From an uncultured virus (IMG/VR IMGVR_UViG_3300050821_006652) (Duplodnaviria; Heunggongvirae; Uroviricota; Caudoviricetes): a DNA stretch of 20,000 bases. Every line of letters starts with the position of its first letter. Position 1 is the stretch's first letter. Where the stretch lies: the IMG/VR virus record IMGVR_UViG_3300050821_006652; one strand, written 5' to 3'. Below the pieces are notes generated by a model that was given only the letters and a program-made list of their open reading frames with translations, did not search any database and was not told the origin of the DNA. Position numbers and translations under genes: made by a program. Shown in pieces: positions 6,852 through 19,102 of this stretch.

Positions 6852-9236
6852 TCACTTCGCCAATGCCCTGATCGTTGACAGCGTGCCCGTCCCCACTTCA
6901 CGCCTCAAATCGGGATACCGGTCGAGCACGTTCACAAGGTGCCGGTACAACGCCACCGCCTCTGGCATGTTGATCCGCTTCAACCGCTCCAAGAACTGCG
7001 TCAAATCCAGCGAATACAATTCCGGCGACACCAGATGCCGGTACAGGATGCCACCCTCTCCGAACGGCACGTCCCGCGCGTGTACCGCCAGGGCCATCAA
7101 CGCCCGGCTGTAGTGCATCGTTTGTTGCTCGGCCGGATGCCCGGTGCCGCTCCCGACGATCCACTTCTTGAATAGTTCAATCGGCATCGCCTTGATGCCG
7201 CCGAATCCTTTCCAGCCCGGCGAGTAATTCGCATGGTAAGCATCCTTCGCCTCTTCCTCAGAAACGAAGCCGATCATGCACTTGTGCTCATCGAAACTAC
7301 CATCCGCTTTCATTTGGTCGATGATGAAGACGAGTTCACTTTCAGGAGTCGGCCCAAGGAACACATCGACGTGATCTCCGTCGGCATCGCTCTCGGTACT
7401 TTTGATGTAACCGTAGTGATTGGCCATCGTCACCGACCACTCTTTGCCGGCCTTGCTCTTGCCGCTCCGCGTGCTGCCCTTGGGATTCTCGATGGAGATA
7501 TTCAGGCCATGCAAGGTGACGTGGCCCTTGCGATAGTTGCCGGACTTCTTTTGTTCTTCGCTGGGATTCGTTTCGGTATCCTTCGCAGCGGCGGCAATGG
7601 CATCGGCGTAATCGCGGCTGTAATTCTGCAAGGCCGGTTCCTCTTCCTCTTCGGCAGCGTCGGGAGGGTTTTGTGAACCTTGTGAACCATCTGGTTTTTC
7701 ATTGCCAGGTGGGAAGCCGGGTTTCTGCCCCGGCATCGGCTCCGGCCCCTTCTTCAGCACCGCGTCACCCTCCATCGGCTTCGTGAACCCGATAGCGTCG
7801 ATAACCTCATCCTCAAGCAGGCCAGCCCCCATCTCCCACGCCGCCTTCGCCGCCTGCATCTTGTTCTCAGCCTTCTGCCGCTCCACCCCAAACCGGAAAT
7901 ACGCCGGGATCTCCTCATACTCCGGGTAGGTGTACTTCTTGATCGTGTTCAATAGGTCGAACGTCACCGACTCGGCCAAGCTGAACGAATCCGACTCGGT
8001 AATATCGTTCTTCGTCTCCGAGGCCAACTCCGCCCAAGCCGAACCGGAAATGAGGCCACCGCCCTTGCCCTTCGTGCCGCCGCTCATGGTCTGCCCGACG
8101 ATGTACCGCTCGTGCCACTTCTCCACATACTCGATCAGCCGCAGGATCAACTCCGGACCAGTGCCCCCAGGCTCGCGCCAGTCCATATCCTCCTGCACAC
8201 CGCCCCGCTCGTCCGTGTATCGCGGAATGAGGATATTCGTGCGGTGGATGTTGGCCTTCGCCGCCGCCTCCACCGCCTTCTGACTCGCCGGATTGCCCGC
8301 GTTGTAATACCACACCCGCACCCCGATACCAGCCCGCTCCACCCAGTCCGTCACGTTGCTGATCCACTCCCTCTTGAGATAGTCCAGGAAGTAGATGAAC
8401 GACCTGATGCCGCAGCCGTGAATCGAATCCGCCTCCATCGGTGAGTAAAAGTCCGCGTCCTGAATCCCCTCCATGAACTCGTGGATCATGAACTGCTCGC
8501 GCATCCACCCGCGCAGAGGCGCGGCCCGCCCCAGCGTGGCCCACTCTTGCGGCAGTCCCGGAGGTAACTGGTTGTCGTAAGCCCCCGTCACCAGCACGTA
8601 GGGCTCGCCATCGTAGGAGTGCCCGATCTTATCGCCGTTGATTGACATGTGCCCGTCATCGTGGTCTTCACGCTTGACGATCAGGCACTTCCGCCGCTGC
8701 TTTGGCTTCGACATCGGGTTGTCTTTGAGCATCGGATTCATCATGACGCGCAGCTTCGAAGCTGGGGCGGGCATATCCATCTCTTTCCACGCGAACCGGA
8801 ATTGCGTCCCCATCCTCCCATACCAGACCGCATCCGACGCGCACCACAAGAGCTTGCGGAACCGAGAGATCATCCCCACGATCTTCGTCAGCCCTTCCTT
8901 GAGCGCCATCTCATGCGGGTCTTTCTCGTTCTCCACTTCGATGTGCCAGGGCAGGATTGTCACGGCCCGACGTCGCTCGTTGATGAGGCACATGAGCGAC
9001 GAATCCCGCCGCATGGCCATCGCATCCTCACGCGAGTGCCGCATGGCCGTGTCGTGCTTCTCGTGCCAGAACTTCCGCCAGGCTGAACCCACCAGCGCGG
9101 AGAATTGGATTACCTTGGGGACCGCATAGCCGTCGAACTTGCCGCCGAGGGGGAAGGGATTGCCCGAGGGGTCGAGGATGGTGCCCTGCGGGTATTGCGA
9201 GGCCGTGCCGTTCATTGAGAAGCGAGATGGTGCCAT
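6852..9236 (-). CDS. Portal protein (Mu gp29/DUF935-like) fused to an InPase-type inorganic pyrophosphatase domain
   Basis: N-terminal ~490 aa: RRRAV..LPWHIE, DAVWYG, WVERAG, IVGQTMS; located after TerL. C-terminal: GNYRKGHV.LHGLNISIENPKGSTRSG...HYGYIKST..ADGDHVDVFLGP...FDEHKCMIGF. Confidence 0.8.
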   Translation of the reverse strand: MAPSRFSMNGTASQYPQGTILDPSGNPFPLGGKFDGYAVPKVIQFSALVGSAWRKFWHEKHDTAMRHSREDAMAMRRDSSLMCLINERRRAVTILPWHIEVENEKDPHEMALKEGLTKIVGMISRFRKLLWCASDAVWYGRMGTQFRFAWKEMDMPAPASKLRVMMNPMLKDNPMSKPKQRRKCLIVKREDHDDGHMSINGDKIGHSYDGEPYVLVTGAYDNQLPPGLPQEWATLGRAAPLRGWMREQFMIHEFMEGIQDADFYSPMEADSIHGCGIRSFIYFLDYLKREWISNVTDWVERAGIGVRVWYYNAGNPASQKAVEAAAKANIHRTNILIPRYTDERGGVQEDMDWREPGGTGPELILRLIEYVEKWHERYIVGQTMSGGTKGKGGGLISGSAWAELASETKNDITESDSFSLAESVTFDLLNTIKKYTYPEYEEIPAYFRFGVERQKAENKMQAAKAAWEMGAGLLEDEVIDAIGFTKPMEGDAVLKKGPEPMPGQKPGFPPGNEKPDGSQGSQNPPDAAEEEEEPALQNYSRDYADAIAAAAKDTETNPSEEQKKSGNYRKGHVTLHGLNISIENPKGSTRSGKSKAGKEWSVTMANHYGYIKSTESDADGDHVDVFLGPTPESELVFIIDQMKADGSFDEHKCMIGFVSEEEAKDAYHANYSPGWKGFGGIKAMPIELFKKWIVGSGTGHPAEQQTMHYSRALMALAVHARDVPFGEGGILYRHLVSPELYSLDLTQFLERLKRINMPEAVALYRHLVNVLDRYPDLRREVGTGTLSTIRALAK

Positions 9237-9276: not shown

Positions 9277-9938
9277 CAGGCCAGAGGAGGCCGCTCACGC
9301 CAGCCGGAAGGCGGTTCTGCTTCCGGTTCGGTCATTTCCACAATCTTCTTGCTGGCCACCAAGAGGGCGTGACGGATTTCCTTGTCCCTGGCAACACACT
9401 CAAAGCAAGTCTTTTCGCCGCAGGCGCAGACGTTGGCAGGCGCGACGGTTTCCATCGAACCATCCGGCCACACCGTTACGGCTGGACCGCCTTCCTTGGC
9501 CAATGACTTTTCGGGACGACTCGTCATGACTTTTGACCGTTCCATAGCCTTTTCCACCGCTCCACATTCGCAGGGACAAGTACAGGCATTGGAAGGGTCA
9601 ACCAAACCATTAAGGGTATCGAGAGCGGTATCGAGATTCTTGGCCTGTACACTAATCCGCCTTGCCGCCTGTTCCCACCAAGGCGGATCGATGCCCTTGA
9701 ACTCCACGCCGAGGGCCGCTTCGATTGCCCTGATTGCGTCTCGGTTTTTATCCGTCAACGCCCGCAACATTTGATAAGGCCCTGTCCCTGACCGTTGCAG
9801 CCATTGGGCGCGTTCTTCATCACGAAGCATTTCCCGCACCATCTCCAGCAGGCTCCCGGTGAAGCCAGCGGCGCGGAGAAGGCCAACAGCTTCATTGATT
9901 TCTTGTCCCATTGAATACGGAATAGGAATCGTCATCAC
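9276..9938 (-). CDS. Hypothetical protein with Cys clusters (CTCPCEC, CACGEKTCFEC)
   Basis: 220 aa, coupled to the TerL stop (GTGA). Confidence 0.6.
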   Translation of the reverse strand: MMTIPIPYSMGQEINEAVGLLRAAGFTGSLLEMVREMLRDEERAQWLQRSGTGPYQMLRALTDKNRDAIRAIEAALGVEFKGIDPPWWEQAARRISVQAKNLDTALDTLNGLVDPSNACTCPCECGAVEKAMERSKVMTSRPEKSLAKEGGPAVTVWPDGSMETVAPANVCACGEKTCFECVARDKEIRHALLVASKKIVEMTEPEAEPPSGWRERPPLA

Positions 9939-11599
9939 TTCCCTCCAAACACCCGCTGATAAAGGTTCGGCCTGCCAGCTTCTTCAAGAATGGGAGGCGC
10001 GACAAAATCCGTTCCTGAATAATACCCCAGGTTCATCGAGTCGGCGGAATCTGGGGAACGCCCACACTTCGCCTTGGTAATGTCCTTCGGCTCGCACACC
10101 CGCCGCCCCTGCACCACCTCATATTCTACCACCATCGCCTGAGATTTCAGCCGCCGCAATGACGATTTCGATAGCCGCGTCAGATCGAGCTGCCCCGACC
10201 GCGCCCGATCGCGCGTGTCAAACCACAGCTCGCTCCGCTTGTTCGGATAGTAACCCGCGCGCGCCGCCCGCCCAGCCGCATTGACGCCGACAACCGAATA
10301 CCCCCAGCTCCGCAGGATCGACACCACTCCCCCGCCCGTTCCGTCATCGTCCACCTTGATCCTGATTTGCGGCCCCTCTATCGGCTTCGCCTGCGGTTCC
10401 CGGTGCTTCGTGACCAGCGCCGCGTATTCGTCGGCCAGGGCCTTGAGGCGCTTCGCCGTGCGCACATGGTCCCACCCGTTATGCTCCTCGTGGTGCATCC
10501 CGCACGGACCCCAACGCACGAAGAAGGCCGTCCAATCAGCCCCATGATAGGCGATGTCCGCCCCGATCTCTGGAAGTATCTCAATGGGCAGCGGCAATCG
10601 CTTCGCAGTCACAGTCTCCCAGAGCGATTCGGACCAGACGCCTTGCGTCCCCATCGTCGGCCAAACACCCTGACATCGCGCCTGAAATACCGGGCCAGGC
10701 CGATGCCACTTCCCGCTCTTGGGAGGCCATTCCAAATCCTCTGGCGTTATCTCGTCTTGCTCCCGATCTATCGGTTCCGTCCACTCCTCCACCCACTGAT
10801 TCACCTGCTGCAACGTCACCGCCGCAGGTATCGGGGGAGGACGACCTGCCAGCTCCGCCGCGATATTCGGATGATCGAGAGCCGACAGGGTGTAGGTGTG
10901 CCAGGACGGAGTTTCCGCCATGCCGGAATCCGACTCCTGCGCGTACGCCTCAGAGGTAGTCTCAGTGGGGTTGCAGATCGCCAGCCACGCATGGCCAGCT
11001 TCGGGCTTGAACATCGAGGCGAACGTCTGCCAGAAGATCGGGGAAATGCCAACGGCCTCATCCATGACCAGCAGCATCCGCAGATCGTGCCGCCCTTGGA
11101 GCGATTCGCCCCGCCGAGCCGTGAAACCCTTGGCGTAGTGGTCAGGCCCCGTCCGCATTTCGGGAGCCGATGGCCCGACAAACACATCGGCCAGCCCCGC
11201 CCGCTGACGCTGCATCCGCACTTCTTTCCACAGCACGTCCCGCACGTCGCGCGCCGTCGGAGCGGTCGAGATAACCGCGCAAGGAGCTTGGCAGTCGAAG
11301 AACCAGTTAATCGCCACCGCTGCCAGGTGGGTCTTCCCGACCGAATGGCCCGACTTCGCCATCGTCCGGTAAGGGGGGATCGTCAGGCTTCGGAGTATGT
11401 CCTGTGCCGTTGGTGTGAGGTCCACCATTAAGACTTGGCGGGCATAGTCCACCGGGTCCGGGTATTTTCCCGTTAGTGGATACGCCGTTAACGTGGCCGT
11501 TCCCATTGACCAGCGACTCAGCTCGTGAGGCGTGAACGCCGACCGCAAGATTCGCTCTAAGTCGCTCAAGGGATTCGGGGGAGACGTTGAGCCGTGCAA
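9935..11599 (-). CDS. terL: Terminase large subunit
   Basis: Walker A GHSVGKT, Walker B LLVMDEA, coupling motif ICNP, RNase H-like nuclease IGADIA / VDDDGTGGG / SPDSADS; TTG start with GGAGG 6 nt upstream. Confidence 0.93.
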   Translation of the reverse strand: MHGSTSPPNPLSDLERILRSAFTPHELSRWSMGTATLTAYPLTGKYPDPVDYARQVLMVDLTPTAQDILRSLTIPPYRTMAKSGHSVGKTHLAAVAINWFFDCQAPCAVISTAPTARDVRDVLWKEVRMQRQRAGLADVFVGPSAPEMRTGPDHYAKGFTARRGESLQGRHDLRMLLVMDEAVGISPIFWQTFASMFKPEAGHAWLAICNPTETTSEAYAQESDSGMAETPSWHTYTLSALDHPNIAAELAGRPPPIPAAVTLQQVNQWVEEWTEPIDREQDEITPEDLEWPPKSGKWHRPGPVFQARCQGVWPTMGTQGVWSESLWETVTAKRLPLPIEILPEIGADIAYHGADWTAFFVRWGPCGMHHEEHNGWDHVRTAKRLKALADEYAALVTKHREPQAKPIEGPQIRIKVDDDGTGGGVVSILRSWGYSVVGVNAAGRAARAGYYPNKRSELWFDTRDRARSGQLDLTRLSKSSLRRLKSQAMVVEYEVVQGRRVCEPKDITKAKCGRSPDSADSMNLGYYSGTDFVAPPILEEAGRPNLYQRVFGGK

Positions 11600-13943: not shown

Positions 13944-13952
13944 CTGTATCAT

Positions 13953-14081
13953 ATCGCATAGCGTTTAGGTACAATATGTACGAAAACGCATAGCGATTAA
14001 ATCGTATAACAGTTTACTACCTTTTACATAAGACCATATACGATAACGAGTTATGGATATTCGCTCTAATCGCTATGCGAT
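13953..14081. repeat. Three copies of quasi-palindrome ATCGCATAGCGATTA (13953-13967, 13985-13999, inverted 14067-14081) in an AT-rich intergenic region
   Basis: Read directly; the first two copies each differ from consensus by one base. Confidence 0.7.
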
Positions 14082-14124
14082 TGGCATGGTCATTGCATTG
14101 TTATACTGACGATGACGACGACCG

Positions 14125-14154
14125 TTGATTTTTGTCCCGAAAACGGGTATAATA
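14125..14154 (+). promoter_or_regulatory. Sigma70-type promoter TTGATT-17-TATAAT with a palindromic operator in the spacer
   Basis: Perfect -10; spacer contains CCCG-AAAA-CGGG; ATG 6 nt after the -10. Confidence 0.8.
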
Positions 14155-14159
14155 CCAGC

Positions 14160-14354
14160 ATGAAAAAACAGGACCTACTCACCGTTGCCGAGGCCGCCGC
14201 CTTGCTAGACCTGGACCCGTCGATGATCCGCCGCTATATCCGACGCGGACTAATCCCGATTATCGACTACGGACCCCACGCAAGATTGATCGAGCCGGCG
14301 GCCCTGAAAAAACTCAAAAGAAATCCAGTAGGACAGCCGCGCAAACAAAACTAA
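14160..14354 (+). CDS. HTH_17/excisionase-like DNA-binding protein
   Basis: MKKQDLLTVAEAAALLDLDPSMIRRYIRRGLIP...RLI. Confidence 0.85.
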   Translation: MKKQDLLTVAEAAALLDLDPSMIRRYIRRGLIPIIDYGPHARLIEPAALKKLKRNPVGQPRKQN

Positions 14355-14432: not shown

Positions 14433-14462
14433 TTGCTTATTGTCCCGAAAACGGGTATAATA
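14433..14462 (+). promoter_or_regulatory. Sigma70-type promoter TTGCTT-17-TATAAT with the same operator
   Basis: 23-nt exact repeat TTGTCCCGAAAACGGGTATAATA at 14132-14154 and 14440-14462. Confidence 0.8.
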
Positions 14463-16197: not shown

Positions 16198-16757
16198 CCG
16201 ACGACCTCGAAGCCATGCGCGCCGAAGCGGACGCCGAACTAGCCGCCGCCAACCCGTCGCCACTCGCCCGCACGAATGACGATGCGTTCCTGGAAAGATA
16301 CGTCCGCACGATGGGCCGGTATGCCGACGAGAAGGCCCGCGTCAGTGCCGGTTGCGATTCGATAATTGCGGACATCACACGGAAGGAATACATCGTCCGC
16401 GTGTGCATGGAACAGAGGGCGATGGAAATTGTCCGAATGAGATTGACCGGCAAGAAGCGCAGCGTCAAGACGCCGTGGGGATCGGTGGGGTTCACGAAGA
16501 TACTTGCCCGCGTTGAAGTGGCTGATGCCGCTGAGCTGCCCGACGAATACCTGCGCCGCGTCCCCGATCTGTCCGCACTAGTGGCCCTCTATCGCAAGAC
16601 CGGGGAGATCGCCAGCGGTTGCCGGGAAGTCGAAGGCGGCGAGAAGTTCGGACTCAAGGCCCAGCGGCAACCAAAATCCACCGCTGACGCCGCAAGAAAT
16701 GTTGACGAAGACTACCCCGAAAGCGAAGATACCGAAGAGGAAGAACGTTTCCGTTGA
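16194..16757 (+). CDS. Gam/Siphovirus Gp157-like host-nuclease inhibitor
   Basis: Helical N-terminus followed by KKRSVKTPWGSVGF.K...VEV.D...LPDEYLR..PD..AL. Confidence 0.65.
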   Translation: MTDDLEAMRAEADAELAAANPSPLARTNDDAFLERYVRTMGRYADEKARVSAGCDSIIADITRKEYIVRVCMEQRAMEIVRMRLTGKKRSVKTPWGSVGFTKILARVEVADAAELPDEYLRRVPDLSALVALYRKTGEIASGCREVEGGEKFGLKAQRQPKSTADAARNVDEDYPESEDTEEEERFR

Positions 16758-16782
16758 CCACAGTAATCCGTATGATGCACTT

Positions 16783-16974
16783 ATGCTTCCTCACCAAATA
16801 AAAAAACTTCGGATCGCCATGAAGATGACCCAAGGTGAATTCGCTGCGCGTCTCGGCCTGAAAACCAAGGGCGCTATTGCCCATTGGGAATCAGGCAGAA
16901 AAGACCCGCCAGGAACAGCACTCGTCTTGCTAAACCTTCTGGCCGCTGAATTTCTCAAGAAACGAGCATCGTGA
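16783..16974 (+). CDS. XRE-family HTH regulator
   Basis: IKKLRIAMKMTQGEFAARLG...AIAHWESGRKDP; TATGAT 6 nt before the ATG. Confidence 0.88.
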   Translation: MLPHQIKKLRIAMKMTQGEFAARLGLKTKGAIAHWESGRKDPPGTALVLLNLLAAEFLKKRAS

Positions 16975-17021
16975 CCACCCAAACTACTTTCGATAAAAGC
17001 TACTAAATTTTGTTTTTATGG

Positions 17022-17050
17022 TTGACTATGGTAAACAGTATGCTTATAGT
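17022..17050 (+). promoter_or_regulatory. Sigma70-type promoter TTGACT-17-TATAGT
   Basis: Near-consensus hexamers in AT-rich intergenic DNA. Confidence 0.75.
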
Positions 17051-17080
17051 ATTGAGATGTGGAAAGGCACGCCCTGTTTT

Positions 17081-17133
17081 GGCGGTGCGCGGTGCGGCGG
17101 GGTCTGGTCGGGTAAGCCAAGGTTCTTTTAACC
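17081..17133 (+). ncRNA. GGY-NN pentamer tract with short 3' hairpin (candidate VIPR-type guide RNA)
   Basis: GGCGG TGCGC GGTGC GGCGG GGTCT GGTCG GGTAA GCCAA GGTTC: 7 of 9 pentamers start with GGY. GGTT-CTTTT-AACC at 17121-17133. Confidence 0.55.
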
Positions 17134-17145
17134 AAAGGAGACTGT

Positions 17146-17523
17146 ATGAAGAAGGTCAACGCAACTGAGATTGGCGGCGAGGTTCCGACGAACGGAGCCG
17201 AACAATCCCTCGAATTGTCCAAGCCCTATGTCGTGACCGTCACCCTGACCGGCACGGCCGACTTCCTCTTTCACCGCTACAACCCGGAGAGCGTGAAGGC
17301 CAAGGGAGAAGCGGCGAAAGGTAGCAAGGCCAAGAAGTCCGATGACATCGAAACCTACGTCTACCGCAACGACGCGGGGGAACTCTGCATCCCAGGCGAA
17401 TATGTCAGGCAATCCATTCTCCATGCCGCGAAGTTTCGGGCACAGGCCGTCTTTCGATACGGCAGGAACGTAACGCGAGAAGTGGAAAAGGAAATCGAAT
17501 CCCGGAAGGTGCAGCAGCCATGA
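17146..17523 (+). CDS. Cas7/RAMP-like (Vipr-like) protein, N-terminal half only; probably truncated
   Basis: VTVTLTGTADFLFHRYN (RRM beta1) and YRNDAGELCIPGEYVRQSILHAA (RAMP IPG..++ motif); AAGGAG SD; no C-terminal Gly-rich loop. Confidence 0.6.
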   Translation: MKKVNATEIGGEVPTNGAEQSLELSKPYVVTVTLTGTADFLFHRYNPESVKAKGEAAKGSKAKKSDDIETYVYRNDAGELCIPGEYVRQSILHAAKFRAQAVFRYGRNVTREVEKEIESRKVQQP

Positions 17524-17822
17524 GCGAATACCTCTGGACCACCCGCGAAGGCCAGCAGTTGACGCTGGACCAGATCGACAACCGGCACCTGGCGAACATC
17601 CTCAAGATGCTCCTGCGCAACGCGGAGCGGATACGGATGGAATCGCTATGCCAGATGGGATCGCCCCCAACTGCGGAAATGGCGGAATACTATTTTGAGC
17701 AAGCTCAGACAGCCCTTACCGAAGCCGAGCCGGAAGAATTGATCGAGCAACTGTACCCCGAACTGACCGCCGAGGCCGAGAGGCGCGGCATTGACTGGAC
17801 CAAAACGGAGAAAACGCCATGA
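17520..17822 (+). CDS. Phage hypothetical protein
   Basis: WTTREG..L.LDQIDNRHLANILKML; ATGA-coupled on both sides. Confidence 0.7.
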   Translation: MSEYLWTTREGQQLTLDQIDNRHLANILKMLLRNAERIRMESLCQMGSPPTAEMAEYYFEQAQTALTEAEPEELIEQLYPELTAEAERRGIDWTKTEKTP

Positions 17823-19102
17823 CCACCGACCTAGCCGAAACCCGGAACCATCTCGCCGTGCCCCTTCGCCCCGATTCATGGGCCGGAGCCGCCGCCCGTG
17901 GGCTTGGGGCCCGCAAAGAGCGAGAGGCCATCGTCCACCAAGTTCTCATCAAAGGCGTGGACACCAAGCCGATCCCCGGCTGCGGAGATAAGCCGGTCCT
18001 CCATGACTCCGGTGCCCAGAAGATTCTGGACGCCCTGGAACTGTGGGCCGACTACGAAGTCATCAAGGAAGTTGAAGATTGGGCAAACCGCTTTTGGTTC
18101 TATCGATACCGCTGCACCGCTCGCCAGCGCGGGACCAATATCGCCGTGTCCAGCGGCATCGGTTCTTGCAACAGTCGGGAGAGTAAGTACGGCTATCGTT
18201 GGGTGCCCGCTCACGCTCTGCCGAAAGGAACCGACCTCTCTTCCTTGAAGACGAAAGGCGGCAGGATTTCCGAGTTCGACTTCGCCATCCAGAAAGGTGA
18301 GACAACGGGAAAGTTCGGCAAGCCCGCTGAATACTGGCAGCAATTCCGCGACGCCATCGCCAGCGGTGAAGCCAAGAAAATCAGCAAGCCCACCAAGAAA
18401 GGCGAAATGCAAGCCTGGGAAATCGACGGCACGCTGTATCAGGTCATCAATGAGGACGTGGAAACTCAGGTCAACACCATCGACAAAATGGCGCAGAAAA
18501 GGGCGAAGGTCGCCGCCTGTATCGCTCTGGGATTCGGGGAGCATTTGACCCAAGACATTGAGGAGAACCCCGAAGCGTTCGGAGGCCACTCGGTCCCCAC
18601 CTACGCCAGCGACAAGGGCGAGAAGGCGGAAGGTGAAGTCGATCCGGTCGATCCCGAATTCGCCTCAGCCGATGCCCAACGCGAAGCCGTGGCGAAGAAG
18701 AAGCCAGCCCCACCGCCGCCAGAGGACGCCCACGCCGGCATCACCCGCGAACAGGCCGCACAGATCAAGGTGAGCAAGGAGAACTGGCCGCTGTTCTCGT
18801 CCTACCTGGGAATCTCGAAGCTCTCCGACATCCCGGCCAGCGACTTAGATTTCGTCATGTCCATCCTGAAAGACGATGAGGCCGATTGGGGAGACGCCAA
18901 GGCGCCGCCGCGAATCAGCCTGGCGAAGTGGTCGCAGATTGTCGAAGCAGCCCGCGACCTGGCGGACCCCTGGCGTATCGTCAGCAGCCTGGCGCAGATC
19001 AACGCCCCATGCGACCTGCCCGTGAGCCAGTGGCAGGCCGCGATGGACCTGGCCAAGTTCTGCCCACCGGAGTTCAAAAAAGTGAAGAAAGAAGGTGCGT
19101 AA
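17819..19102 (+). CDS. Probable ssDNA-annealing recombination protein
   Basis: IPGCGDKPVL...GAQKI, GIGSCNSRESKY, NTIDKMAQKRAKVAA motifs, then an acidic/Pro-rich linker; early-module position near a Gam-like gene. Confidence 0.55.
   Translation: MTTDLAETRNHLAVPLRPDSWAGAAARGLGARKEREAIVHQVLIKGVDTKPIPGCGDKPVLHDSGAQKILDALELWADYEVIKEVEDWANRFWFYRYRCTARQRGTNIAVSSGIGSCNSRESKYGYRWVPAHALPKGTDLSSLKTKGGRISEFDFAIQKGETTGKFGKPAEYWQQFRDAIASGEAKKISKPTKKGEMQAWEIDGTLYQVINEDVETQVNTIDKMAQKRAKVAACIALGFGEHLTQDIEENPEAFGGHSVPTYASDKGEKAEGEVDPVDPEFASADAQREAVAKKKPAPPPPEDAHAGITREQAAQIKVSKENWPLFSSYLGISKLSDIPASDLDFVMSILKDDEADWGDAKAPPRISLAKWSQIVEAARDLADPWRIVSSLAQINAPCDLPVSQWQAAMDLAKFCPPEFKKVKKEGA

Follow-up and report, generated by a model that had tools for sequence, protein, structure and literature searches.

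The window, by which we mean the whole 20-kb stretch of DNA that was analysed, presents a tailed-phage setting (Mu-type portal, large terminase, excisionase-like helix-turn-helix (HTH) gene and XRE HTH gene) and carries on its plus strand a compact unit consisting of a promoter, a leader with a run of regular pentamers, a Shine-Dalgarno (SD) sequence and an open reading frame (ORF). The promoter is of the sigma-70 type (TTGACT-17 nt-TATAGT, 17022-17050, with the -35 hexamer at 17022-17027 and the -10 hexamer at 17045-17050) and agrees with the consensus at 10 of 12 positions, as expected from the sequence-only reading, which had placed a promoter before the pentamers. A consensus scan of 16600-17900 returned this as the only promoter-like site and found no terminator-like site; transcription would be expected to start near 17057.

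The pentamer tract, which resembles the guide RNAs (vrRNAs) of the VIPR systems discussed below, occupies 17066-17125 on the plus strand in a single register. Its core of nine units at 17081-17125 (GGCGG, TGCGC, GGTGC, GGCGG, GGTCT, GGTCG, GGTAA, GCCAA and GGTTC) includes seven of the form GGY-NN and is preceded by three degenerate units: GGCAC (at 17066, in register), GCCCT and GTTTT. The NN dinucleotides of the core are GG, GC, GC, GG, CT, CG, AA, AA and TC; these, the nine in-register pentamers, the seven GGYs and the register of GGCAC had all been listed before, and can be read directly from the sequence. A register-aware scan of both strands returned no other tract in the window with at least seven of nine in-register GGYs, and when the window was simulated 1000 times with a first-order Markov model, a tract of this kind came up in just one run.

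At 17121-17145, a short pyrimidine-rich tail (GGTTCTTTTAACC) leads into the SD sequence GGAG (17137-17140), which ends 5 nt before the ATG at 17146, the order of SD and ORF that had been described. These features were delimited from listings of upstream sequence and from an alignment; in the 120 nt before the start codons of many relatives the layout is the same, with the tract followed by a T-rich stretch and then the ribosome-binding site (in the window, GGTAAGCCAAGGTTCTTTTAACCAAAGGAG). The tract of 9-12 GGY/NN units is in register with those of relatives: it could be aligned with the vipr-proximal tracts of 21 of them (chosen by eye), and in the resulting 22-sequence alignment the GG columns are at least 90% kept and the NN columns are variable. 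The window tract is no more degenerate than the tracts of intact relatives. In this alignment (A4; window 17081-17148 plus the 21 loci), the final full unit carries AA in 10 of 21 loci and AT in 5 of 21 (GGYAAGG and GGYATGG, respectively). Because the last units of the window (AA, AA) resemble this conserved GGYAAGG ending, the true extent of the guide is uncertain, and the final NN may be part of a conserved 3' handle rather than of the guide.

A small hairpin had also been proposed in this region. The minimum-free-energy fold does contain one, a weak hairpin in which 17124-17129 pairs with 17134-17139, but it has no comparative support, since RNAalifold found no conserved base pair in the 22-sequence alignment of the window and its 21 relatives; with zero pairs returned, a conserved hairpin or an anti-SD pairing in the tail was rejected. 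Of 200 dinucleotide shuffles, 199 fold better than the leader as a whole (z +1.99), which fits an RNA meant to remain single-stranded. No Rfam family came at or near its gathering score, and the sole match (SNORD48 at 16818-16860, 15.8 bits against a threshold of 36, E 0.84) is noise.

The upstream neighbor of the module is an XRE-type HTH gene, P0004 (16699-16974, plus strand; Pfam HTH_3, E 4.3e-9, from Pfam and PHROGs scans). Downstream, the stop codon of the ORF overlaps the start of a 100-aa gene, P0002 (17520-17822, plus strand), as ATGA; P0002 is probably translationally coupled to the ORF and stands in the position of a vap gene. It is followed by P0003 (17819-19102, plus strand; 427 aa; phrog_10048, of unknown function), an ordinary phage gene of the rightward unit. 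Neither P0002 nor P0003 matched Pfam, NCBIfam or PADLOC, and no homolog of P0002, P0003 or P0004 was found within 3-4 kb of vipr in the loci of 82 relatives; on the evidence of gene content, the VIPR cassette sits in a neighborhood unrelated to those of other vipr loci. Pfam scans of 26 ORFs of the window gave no Cas family, bearing out the earlier statement that no other cas gene is present.

Farther away, the minus strand encodes the large terminase (9935-11599), which is at most 27% identical to that of any deposited phage, and a 794-aa protein (6852-9236) in which Pfam finds a Mu-type portal (PF06074) fused to an InPase domain (PF18823, E 3.6e-56). Domain scans place the excisionase-like HTH gene at 14112-14354. 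Around it lie two copies (93% identical) of a 30-nt element, at 14125-14154 and 14433-14462, each of the form TTGATT-17 nt-TATAAT and enclosing the palindrome CCCGAAAACGGG; judged by sequence, the pair resemble a regulated promoter, operator included, that occurs twice. In the gap where the leftward genes give way to the rightward ones (13945-14082), there are inverted repeats of 25 nt, 80-84% complementary, together with a direct repeat of 23 nt, sharing the core CGCATAGCG; they may be operator sites of a phage switch region.

Half of a vipr gene

The ORF (17146-17523, plus strand) encodes a 125-aa protein, P0001, for which Pfam gave no match and PHROGs a weak one (phrog_4652, E 0.016) confined to the N-terminal half of a 194-position profile. 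A word-indexed protein search with P0001 returned 866 matches at E <= 0.01 (best E 2e-41); among the best 120 of these, nearly all are 195-219 aa long and cover 67-80% of P0001. In an exhaustive search of representatives, 229 clusters matched at E <= 0.001, and among the best 150 of them the match ends by residue 102 of P0001 in all except two (residues 107 and 111). BLASTP against one 209-aa homolog, P0006, gave 73% identity over residues 2-98 and nothing beyond. Because the matches cover the N-terminal part only, P0001 can be read as the first half of a family protein of ~208 aa to which 27 unrelated residues are appended.

The family could be identified through its full-length members. Searched on its own, P0006 hits the “SUSP1 Vipr protein” in the PDB (chain 36pp_D, E 7.2e-6). 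The hit strengthens to E 8.5e-13 when a profile built from 42 full-length homologs (A1) is used, and then spans profile positions 31-205 of 210 and residues 4-191 of the 202 in the chain. P0001 alone falls short of SUSP1 Vipr, so that the link between the two is transitive. Vipr is described as a small RAMP protein found mostly in phages, used with vrRNAs in which a tail follows 9-16 YNNGG repeats, each repeat being bound by one protomer; the NN bases are reported to pair with double-stranded DNA, every third base being skipped, so that the transcription of rival elements is silenced (10.64898/2026.04.26.720920; 10.64898/2026.04.26.720927). The reference locus is that of Escherichia phage SUSP1, a type II system (10.64898/2026.04.26.720920). 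Among the profile collections, Pfam, NCBIfam and PADLOC hold no model for the Vipr-related family, and only phrog_4652 (function unknown) matches it, four full-length homologs doing so at E 6e-15 to 1e-17.

With A1 as the alignment, AlphaFold2 modeled P0006 at a mean pLDDT of 89.9. The best Foldseek matches of this model in the PDB are the Csm3/Cas7 proteins of type III-A and type VII systems (E ~2e-7, probability 1.00, TM ~0.5), so that the comparison with Cas7/RAMP folds that had been proposed for the ORF succeeds with a full-length homolog; the model predicts for this homolog an RRM core, a thumb and a glycine-rich loop, i.e., a RAMP architecture. Since the family profile matches SUSP1 Vipr, the model resembles Csm3/Cas7 and GGY tracts flank the homologs (see below), the locus is, by sequence and predicted fold, a member of the VIPR family, and the proposal of a VIPR-type module is upheld.

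The proposal that this module joins a guide to an effector is not supported as far as a working pair goes: there is a VIPR-family gene with a guide-like tract, but the effector keeps residues 1-98 of about 208 and has neither thumb nor glycine-rich loop (G-loop). When searched over the six frames of the window, the A1 hidden Markov model matches only at profile positions 1-99, at 17146-17439 on the plus strand, and the C-terminal half of vipr with its thumb and glycine-rich loop is absent from all six frames of the 20 kb. Codons 1-98 (strand beta-1, the helical bundle and helix-1) are homologous to the N-terminal half of the Vipr family; the remaining 27 codons and the stop (17440-17523, plus strand) have no significant similarity to it. 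When SUSP1 Vipr is mapped onto the profile, H17 (equivalent to H43) and E71/M72 (E85/Y86) fall in the retained half, and R138 of the thumb and D177, W178 and R179 of the G-loop (GDFRP in the window family) fall in the lost half. Of the residues that contact GGY (H17, R138, D177, W178 and R179), the window thus keeps the equivalent of H17 alone; in SUSP1 Vipr, D177A or R138A is reported to abolish silencing (structural preprint 10.64898/2026.04.26.720927).

Could the 125-aa protein nevertheless be a minimal working Vipr, and the locus an intact and self-sufficient pair of guide and effector? The ORF is open, its SD is good and the conserved N-terminal residues are all kept (within residues 1-98, all 12 columns with >=90% conservation and 30 of the 31 with >=70%), and the tail faintly recalls the end of the G-loop (FR..YGR). 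The protein lacks, however, 15 columns that are >=90% conserved in the family, among them the counterparts of SUSP1 R138 and D177 that are needed for silencing, and the AlphaFold2 model of P0001 (pLDDT 71, pTM 0.41, tail below 50) has no beta sheet, and hence no RRM sheet. Shorter family proteins that we inspected are either fragment-like or end in different, unrelated tails, none of them the tail of the window. We consider a working minimal Vipr highly improbable.

Compared with the C-termini of homologs, the 27-aa tail shows a marginal likeness (YGR...EIES, spaced as in the homolog P0063; shuffle p ~0.05) and may be a remnant of the vipr C-terminus left by an in-frame internal deletion. Because the frame is open and runs into the next gene through ATGA, an arrangement also found in intact relatives such as phage DSL-LC04, an in-frame internal deletion of about 90 codons is the history that we favor. 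A metagenome scan with P0001 recovered its own sequence (contig L020) and three distant partial loci, and no close intact relative that would mark the ends of the deletion.

One might suppose instead that the phage has a full vipr and that the deletion arose in metagenome assembly, given that the only other copy, L020, is 100% identical to the window over 7855 bases and may share source data with it. The reading frame continues across the junction as far as the ATGA overlap, the exact protein is on record in two contigs and comparable truncations occur in independent genomes, all of which makes an assembly artefact very unlikely.

Such truncations were seen in 3 of the 72 genomic relatives that we collected. 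In one (L082, 3001-3531) vipr is cut at residue 174, in another (L093, 2962-3441) the break comes at residue 114 and the frame carries on into the downstream GGY tract of the locus, and in the third (L095, 2995-3405) it is cut near residue 90 and there are no tracts. In addition, a contig of an archaeal metagenome-assembled genome (L088, 3001-3826) has a vipr split by ~295 nt, with many tracts around it. Since truncated genes turn up in 3 of 72 relatives, annotators should check that vipr is complete before calling a working system.

GGY tracts of relatives and the target search

Tracts beside homologs were counted when at least six of eight in-register units were GGY on the vipr strand within 700 nt, and the genomic set comprised 72 loci, gathered with an alignment of 13 closer homolog sequences. 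All seven viral homolog loci have tracts on the strand of the gene and directly adjoining it, and, under the same definition, 69 of the 72 genomic loci have tracts nearby (upstream in 51 and downstream in 49). Combined, 76 of 79 homolog loci have GGY tracts, versus none, on either strand, of 11 control loci (viral-contig relatives of P0002 or P0003, none of them with vipr), which is the association that the sequence-only reading had suggested looking for in the neighborhoods of homologs. A single genomic locus of the 72 (L063) carries tracts on the opposite strand (six), together with two downstream on the vipr strand.

These counts also speak to whether the G-rich leader might have nothing to do with VIPR and be an attenuator, a G-quadruplex or a chance periodicity. 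Its runs of two to four Gs could form weak quadruplexes; against this, a comparable tract arose in a single simulation of the thousand, in-register tracts flank 76 of 79 homolog loci, and neither an Rfam family nor a conserved structure was found. An unrelated leader is extremely unlikely.

Two of the intact relatives illustrate how such loci are arranged. In phage DSL-LC04 (OR003939.1; L096, 2640-3582), an intact Vipr homolog has been deposited as a “helix-turn-helix transcriptional regulator”; ~320 nt of GGY/NN tracts lie upstream of it, the last tract ends in a hairpin and a T run, and the annotation of the record misses the system. In L002 (3670-4000), a GC hairpin and a recurring leader (GCGATGCGTRAGC...) stand between the upstream tracts, a layout that suggests several separately bounded vrRNAs, and the vipr-proximal tract ends in a plain T-rich tail like that of the window.

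The sequence-only reading had further supposed that the guide is aimed at a competing phage or a host gene, and had called for a search with the gapped pattern. We built the pattern from the nine NN units under the rule of a 1-nt skip. It has no match in the 20-kb window at up to three mismatches, and in the viral contigs it has one exact match, at 3001-3026 of L019, in the 5' part of an integrase gene, with the skipped bases at codon position 1 and not at the wobble position. Two control patterns with permuted order gave zero and three exact matches in the same viral collection. Across 97 sequences (560 kb), the L019 site is the only one to reach 15 of 18 positions, against an average of 0.33 for permuted controls. 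The L019 match is at chance level, and we name no target; the supposed competing phage or host gene did not emerge from the search.

Present role of the locus

We think it probable that the locus is a decayed, non-autonomous VIPR module in which a promoter, one guide-like tract and half of a vipr gene survive. In the intact ancestor, the promoter would have driven a vrRNA of GGY/NN pentamers lying immediately upstream of vipr; each Vipr protomer would have bound one GGY, and the exposed NN dinucleotides would have paired with double-stranded DNA, every third base being skipped, so that a gene of some rival would be shut off. According to the preprints, it is for SUSP1 only that the binding of GGY, the rule of the 1-nt skip and silencing have been demonstrated (10.64898/2026.04.26.720920; 10.64898/2026.04.26.720927). 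In the window, a deletion (probably in-frame, internal and of about 90 codons) would then have taken the codons from about 99 onward and with them the thumb and most of the glycine-rich loop. The product of the 125-aa remnant would be unable to form the RRM/RAMP fold or to grip GGY, and for this reason the module would be unable to act alone. We infer that the strong promoter still yields a leader RNA with 9-12 guide-like units; its main present role would be the expression of the remnant ORF and of the coupled downstream phage genes.

Several observations sit uneasily with decay. The remnant itself shows none: its conserved columns are kept, there is no stop or frameshift in residues 1-98 and the ORF shares the bases ATGA with the gene that follows. 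The promoter is near consensus and the tract is as regular as in intact relatives. In view of the conservation of the remnant and the ATGA overlap, either the deletion is recent or the fragment or guide is still under selection. Moreover, the 20-kb window is part of a contig whose reported length is up to 74 kb, so an intact vipr could lie elsewhere in the phage, and the junction is backed by an identical assembled sequence only (L020).

Alternatively, the leader might act as a solo guide in trans, its own effector lost and its vrRNA loaded by the Vipr of a co-resident prophage or a co-infecting phage, which it would turn on a rival or tie up as a decoy. The near-consensus promoter, the tract intact at seven of nine GGYs and a leader apparently selected against self-folding (z +1.99) would all suit such a guide, and in L093, too, tracts persist next to a shortened vipr. 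A foreign Vipr could plausibly load the leader because, as SUSP1 is described, GGY is recognized by generic residues, and these are conserved in the window family; satellites that encode their own vrRNAs have also been reported in the discovery preprint (10.64898/2026.04.26.720920). On the other hand, no Vipr is known that could serve as partner, no target emerged from the search, we are dealing with a single sequence, and the features retained are equally explained by a recent deletion together with the role of the promoter for the downstream genes. We regard a solo guide as unlikely.

A related thought is that half gene and guide are kept together as a counter-VIPR device, through guide piracy, as an RNA decoy or by an N-terminal fragment that poisons the filaments of foreign Vipr; this seems to us quite doubtful. 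Either way, it is improbable that the guide serves a foreign Vipr in trans or that the RNA or the fragment counters VIPR, yet this is the sole route to real novelty at this locus: a solo guide active in trans, if true, would point to guide piracy or anti-VIPR decoys among competing phages. Under the reading that we prefer, that of a decayed module, the locus illustrates how a VIPR system breaks down, with the guide and the promoter outliving the effector.

Relation to known systems

VIPR was first described in 2026 preprints, and the window offers an independent example from a distant and very widespread Vipr clade, whose breadth is apparent from the 229 representative clusters (at 50% identity) and from the 72 genomic loci, which come from many phyla. 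Among its nearest points of comparison are intact loci of the same clade (for instance DSL-LC04, L001, L002 and L025). The N-terminal half of their Vipr is 55-78% identical to that of the window, and in both the GGY/NN tract runs to a T-rich tail and the vipr SD; unlike the half gene of the window, however, their genes have ~205-213 codons and include the GDFRPTYGRF loop, and their tracts, which lie before the gene, after it or on both sides, amount to 120-450 nt, compared with 45-60 nt in the window.

The likeness to VIPR proper, as known from SUSP1, is extensive. Both are phage-encoded with no CRISPR array apparent, the gene families are homologous over nearly their whole length and share a Cas7-like fold, and the tract is intergenic, adjoins vipr and lies on the same strand; the 9-12 GGY/NN pentamers of the window are inside the 9-16 range given in the preprints. 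The differences lie in what has been lost and in distance: the vipr of the window is cut after residue 98, without thumb and G-loop, there is a single vrRNA-like tract, no recognizable vap gene is present in the window, and the clade is far from SUSP1 (single-sequence E 7e-6). Where the vrRNA tail of the SUSP1 clade is described as a pseudoknot, in the window a short U-rich segment leading to the ribosome-binding site seems to take its place.

With the Cas7/Csm3 backbone proteins of class 1 CRISPR systems, the window family shares its full-length fold (Foldseek E ~2e-7, probability 1.00) at 10-16% sequence identity. Unlike those systems, the window has no other cas genes, and its guide would be a pentamer-repeat RNA rather than a spacer-repeat crRNA.

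A parallel to the state of the locus, as opposed to its ancestry, is found in orphan CRISPR arrays and in the decayed cas loci of phages and bacteria, where guide DNA persists beside a broken or absent effector gene, as it does in the window. Orphan arrays belong to another system, whereas here what persists is a single guide under its own strong promoter.
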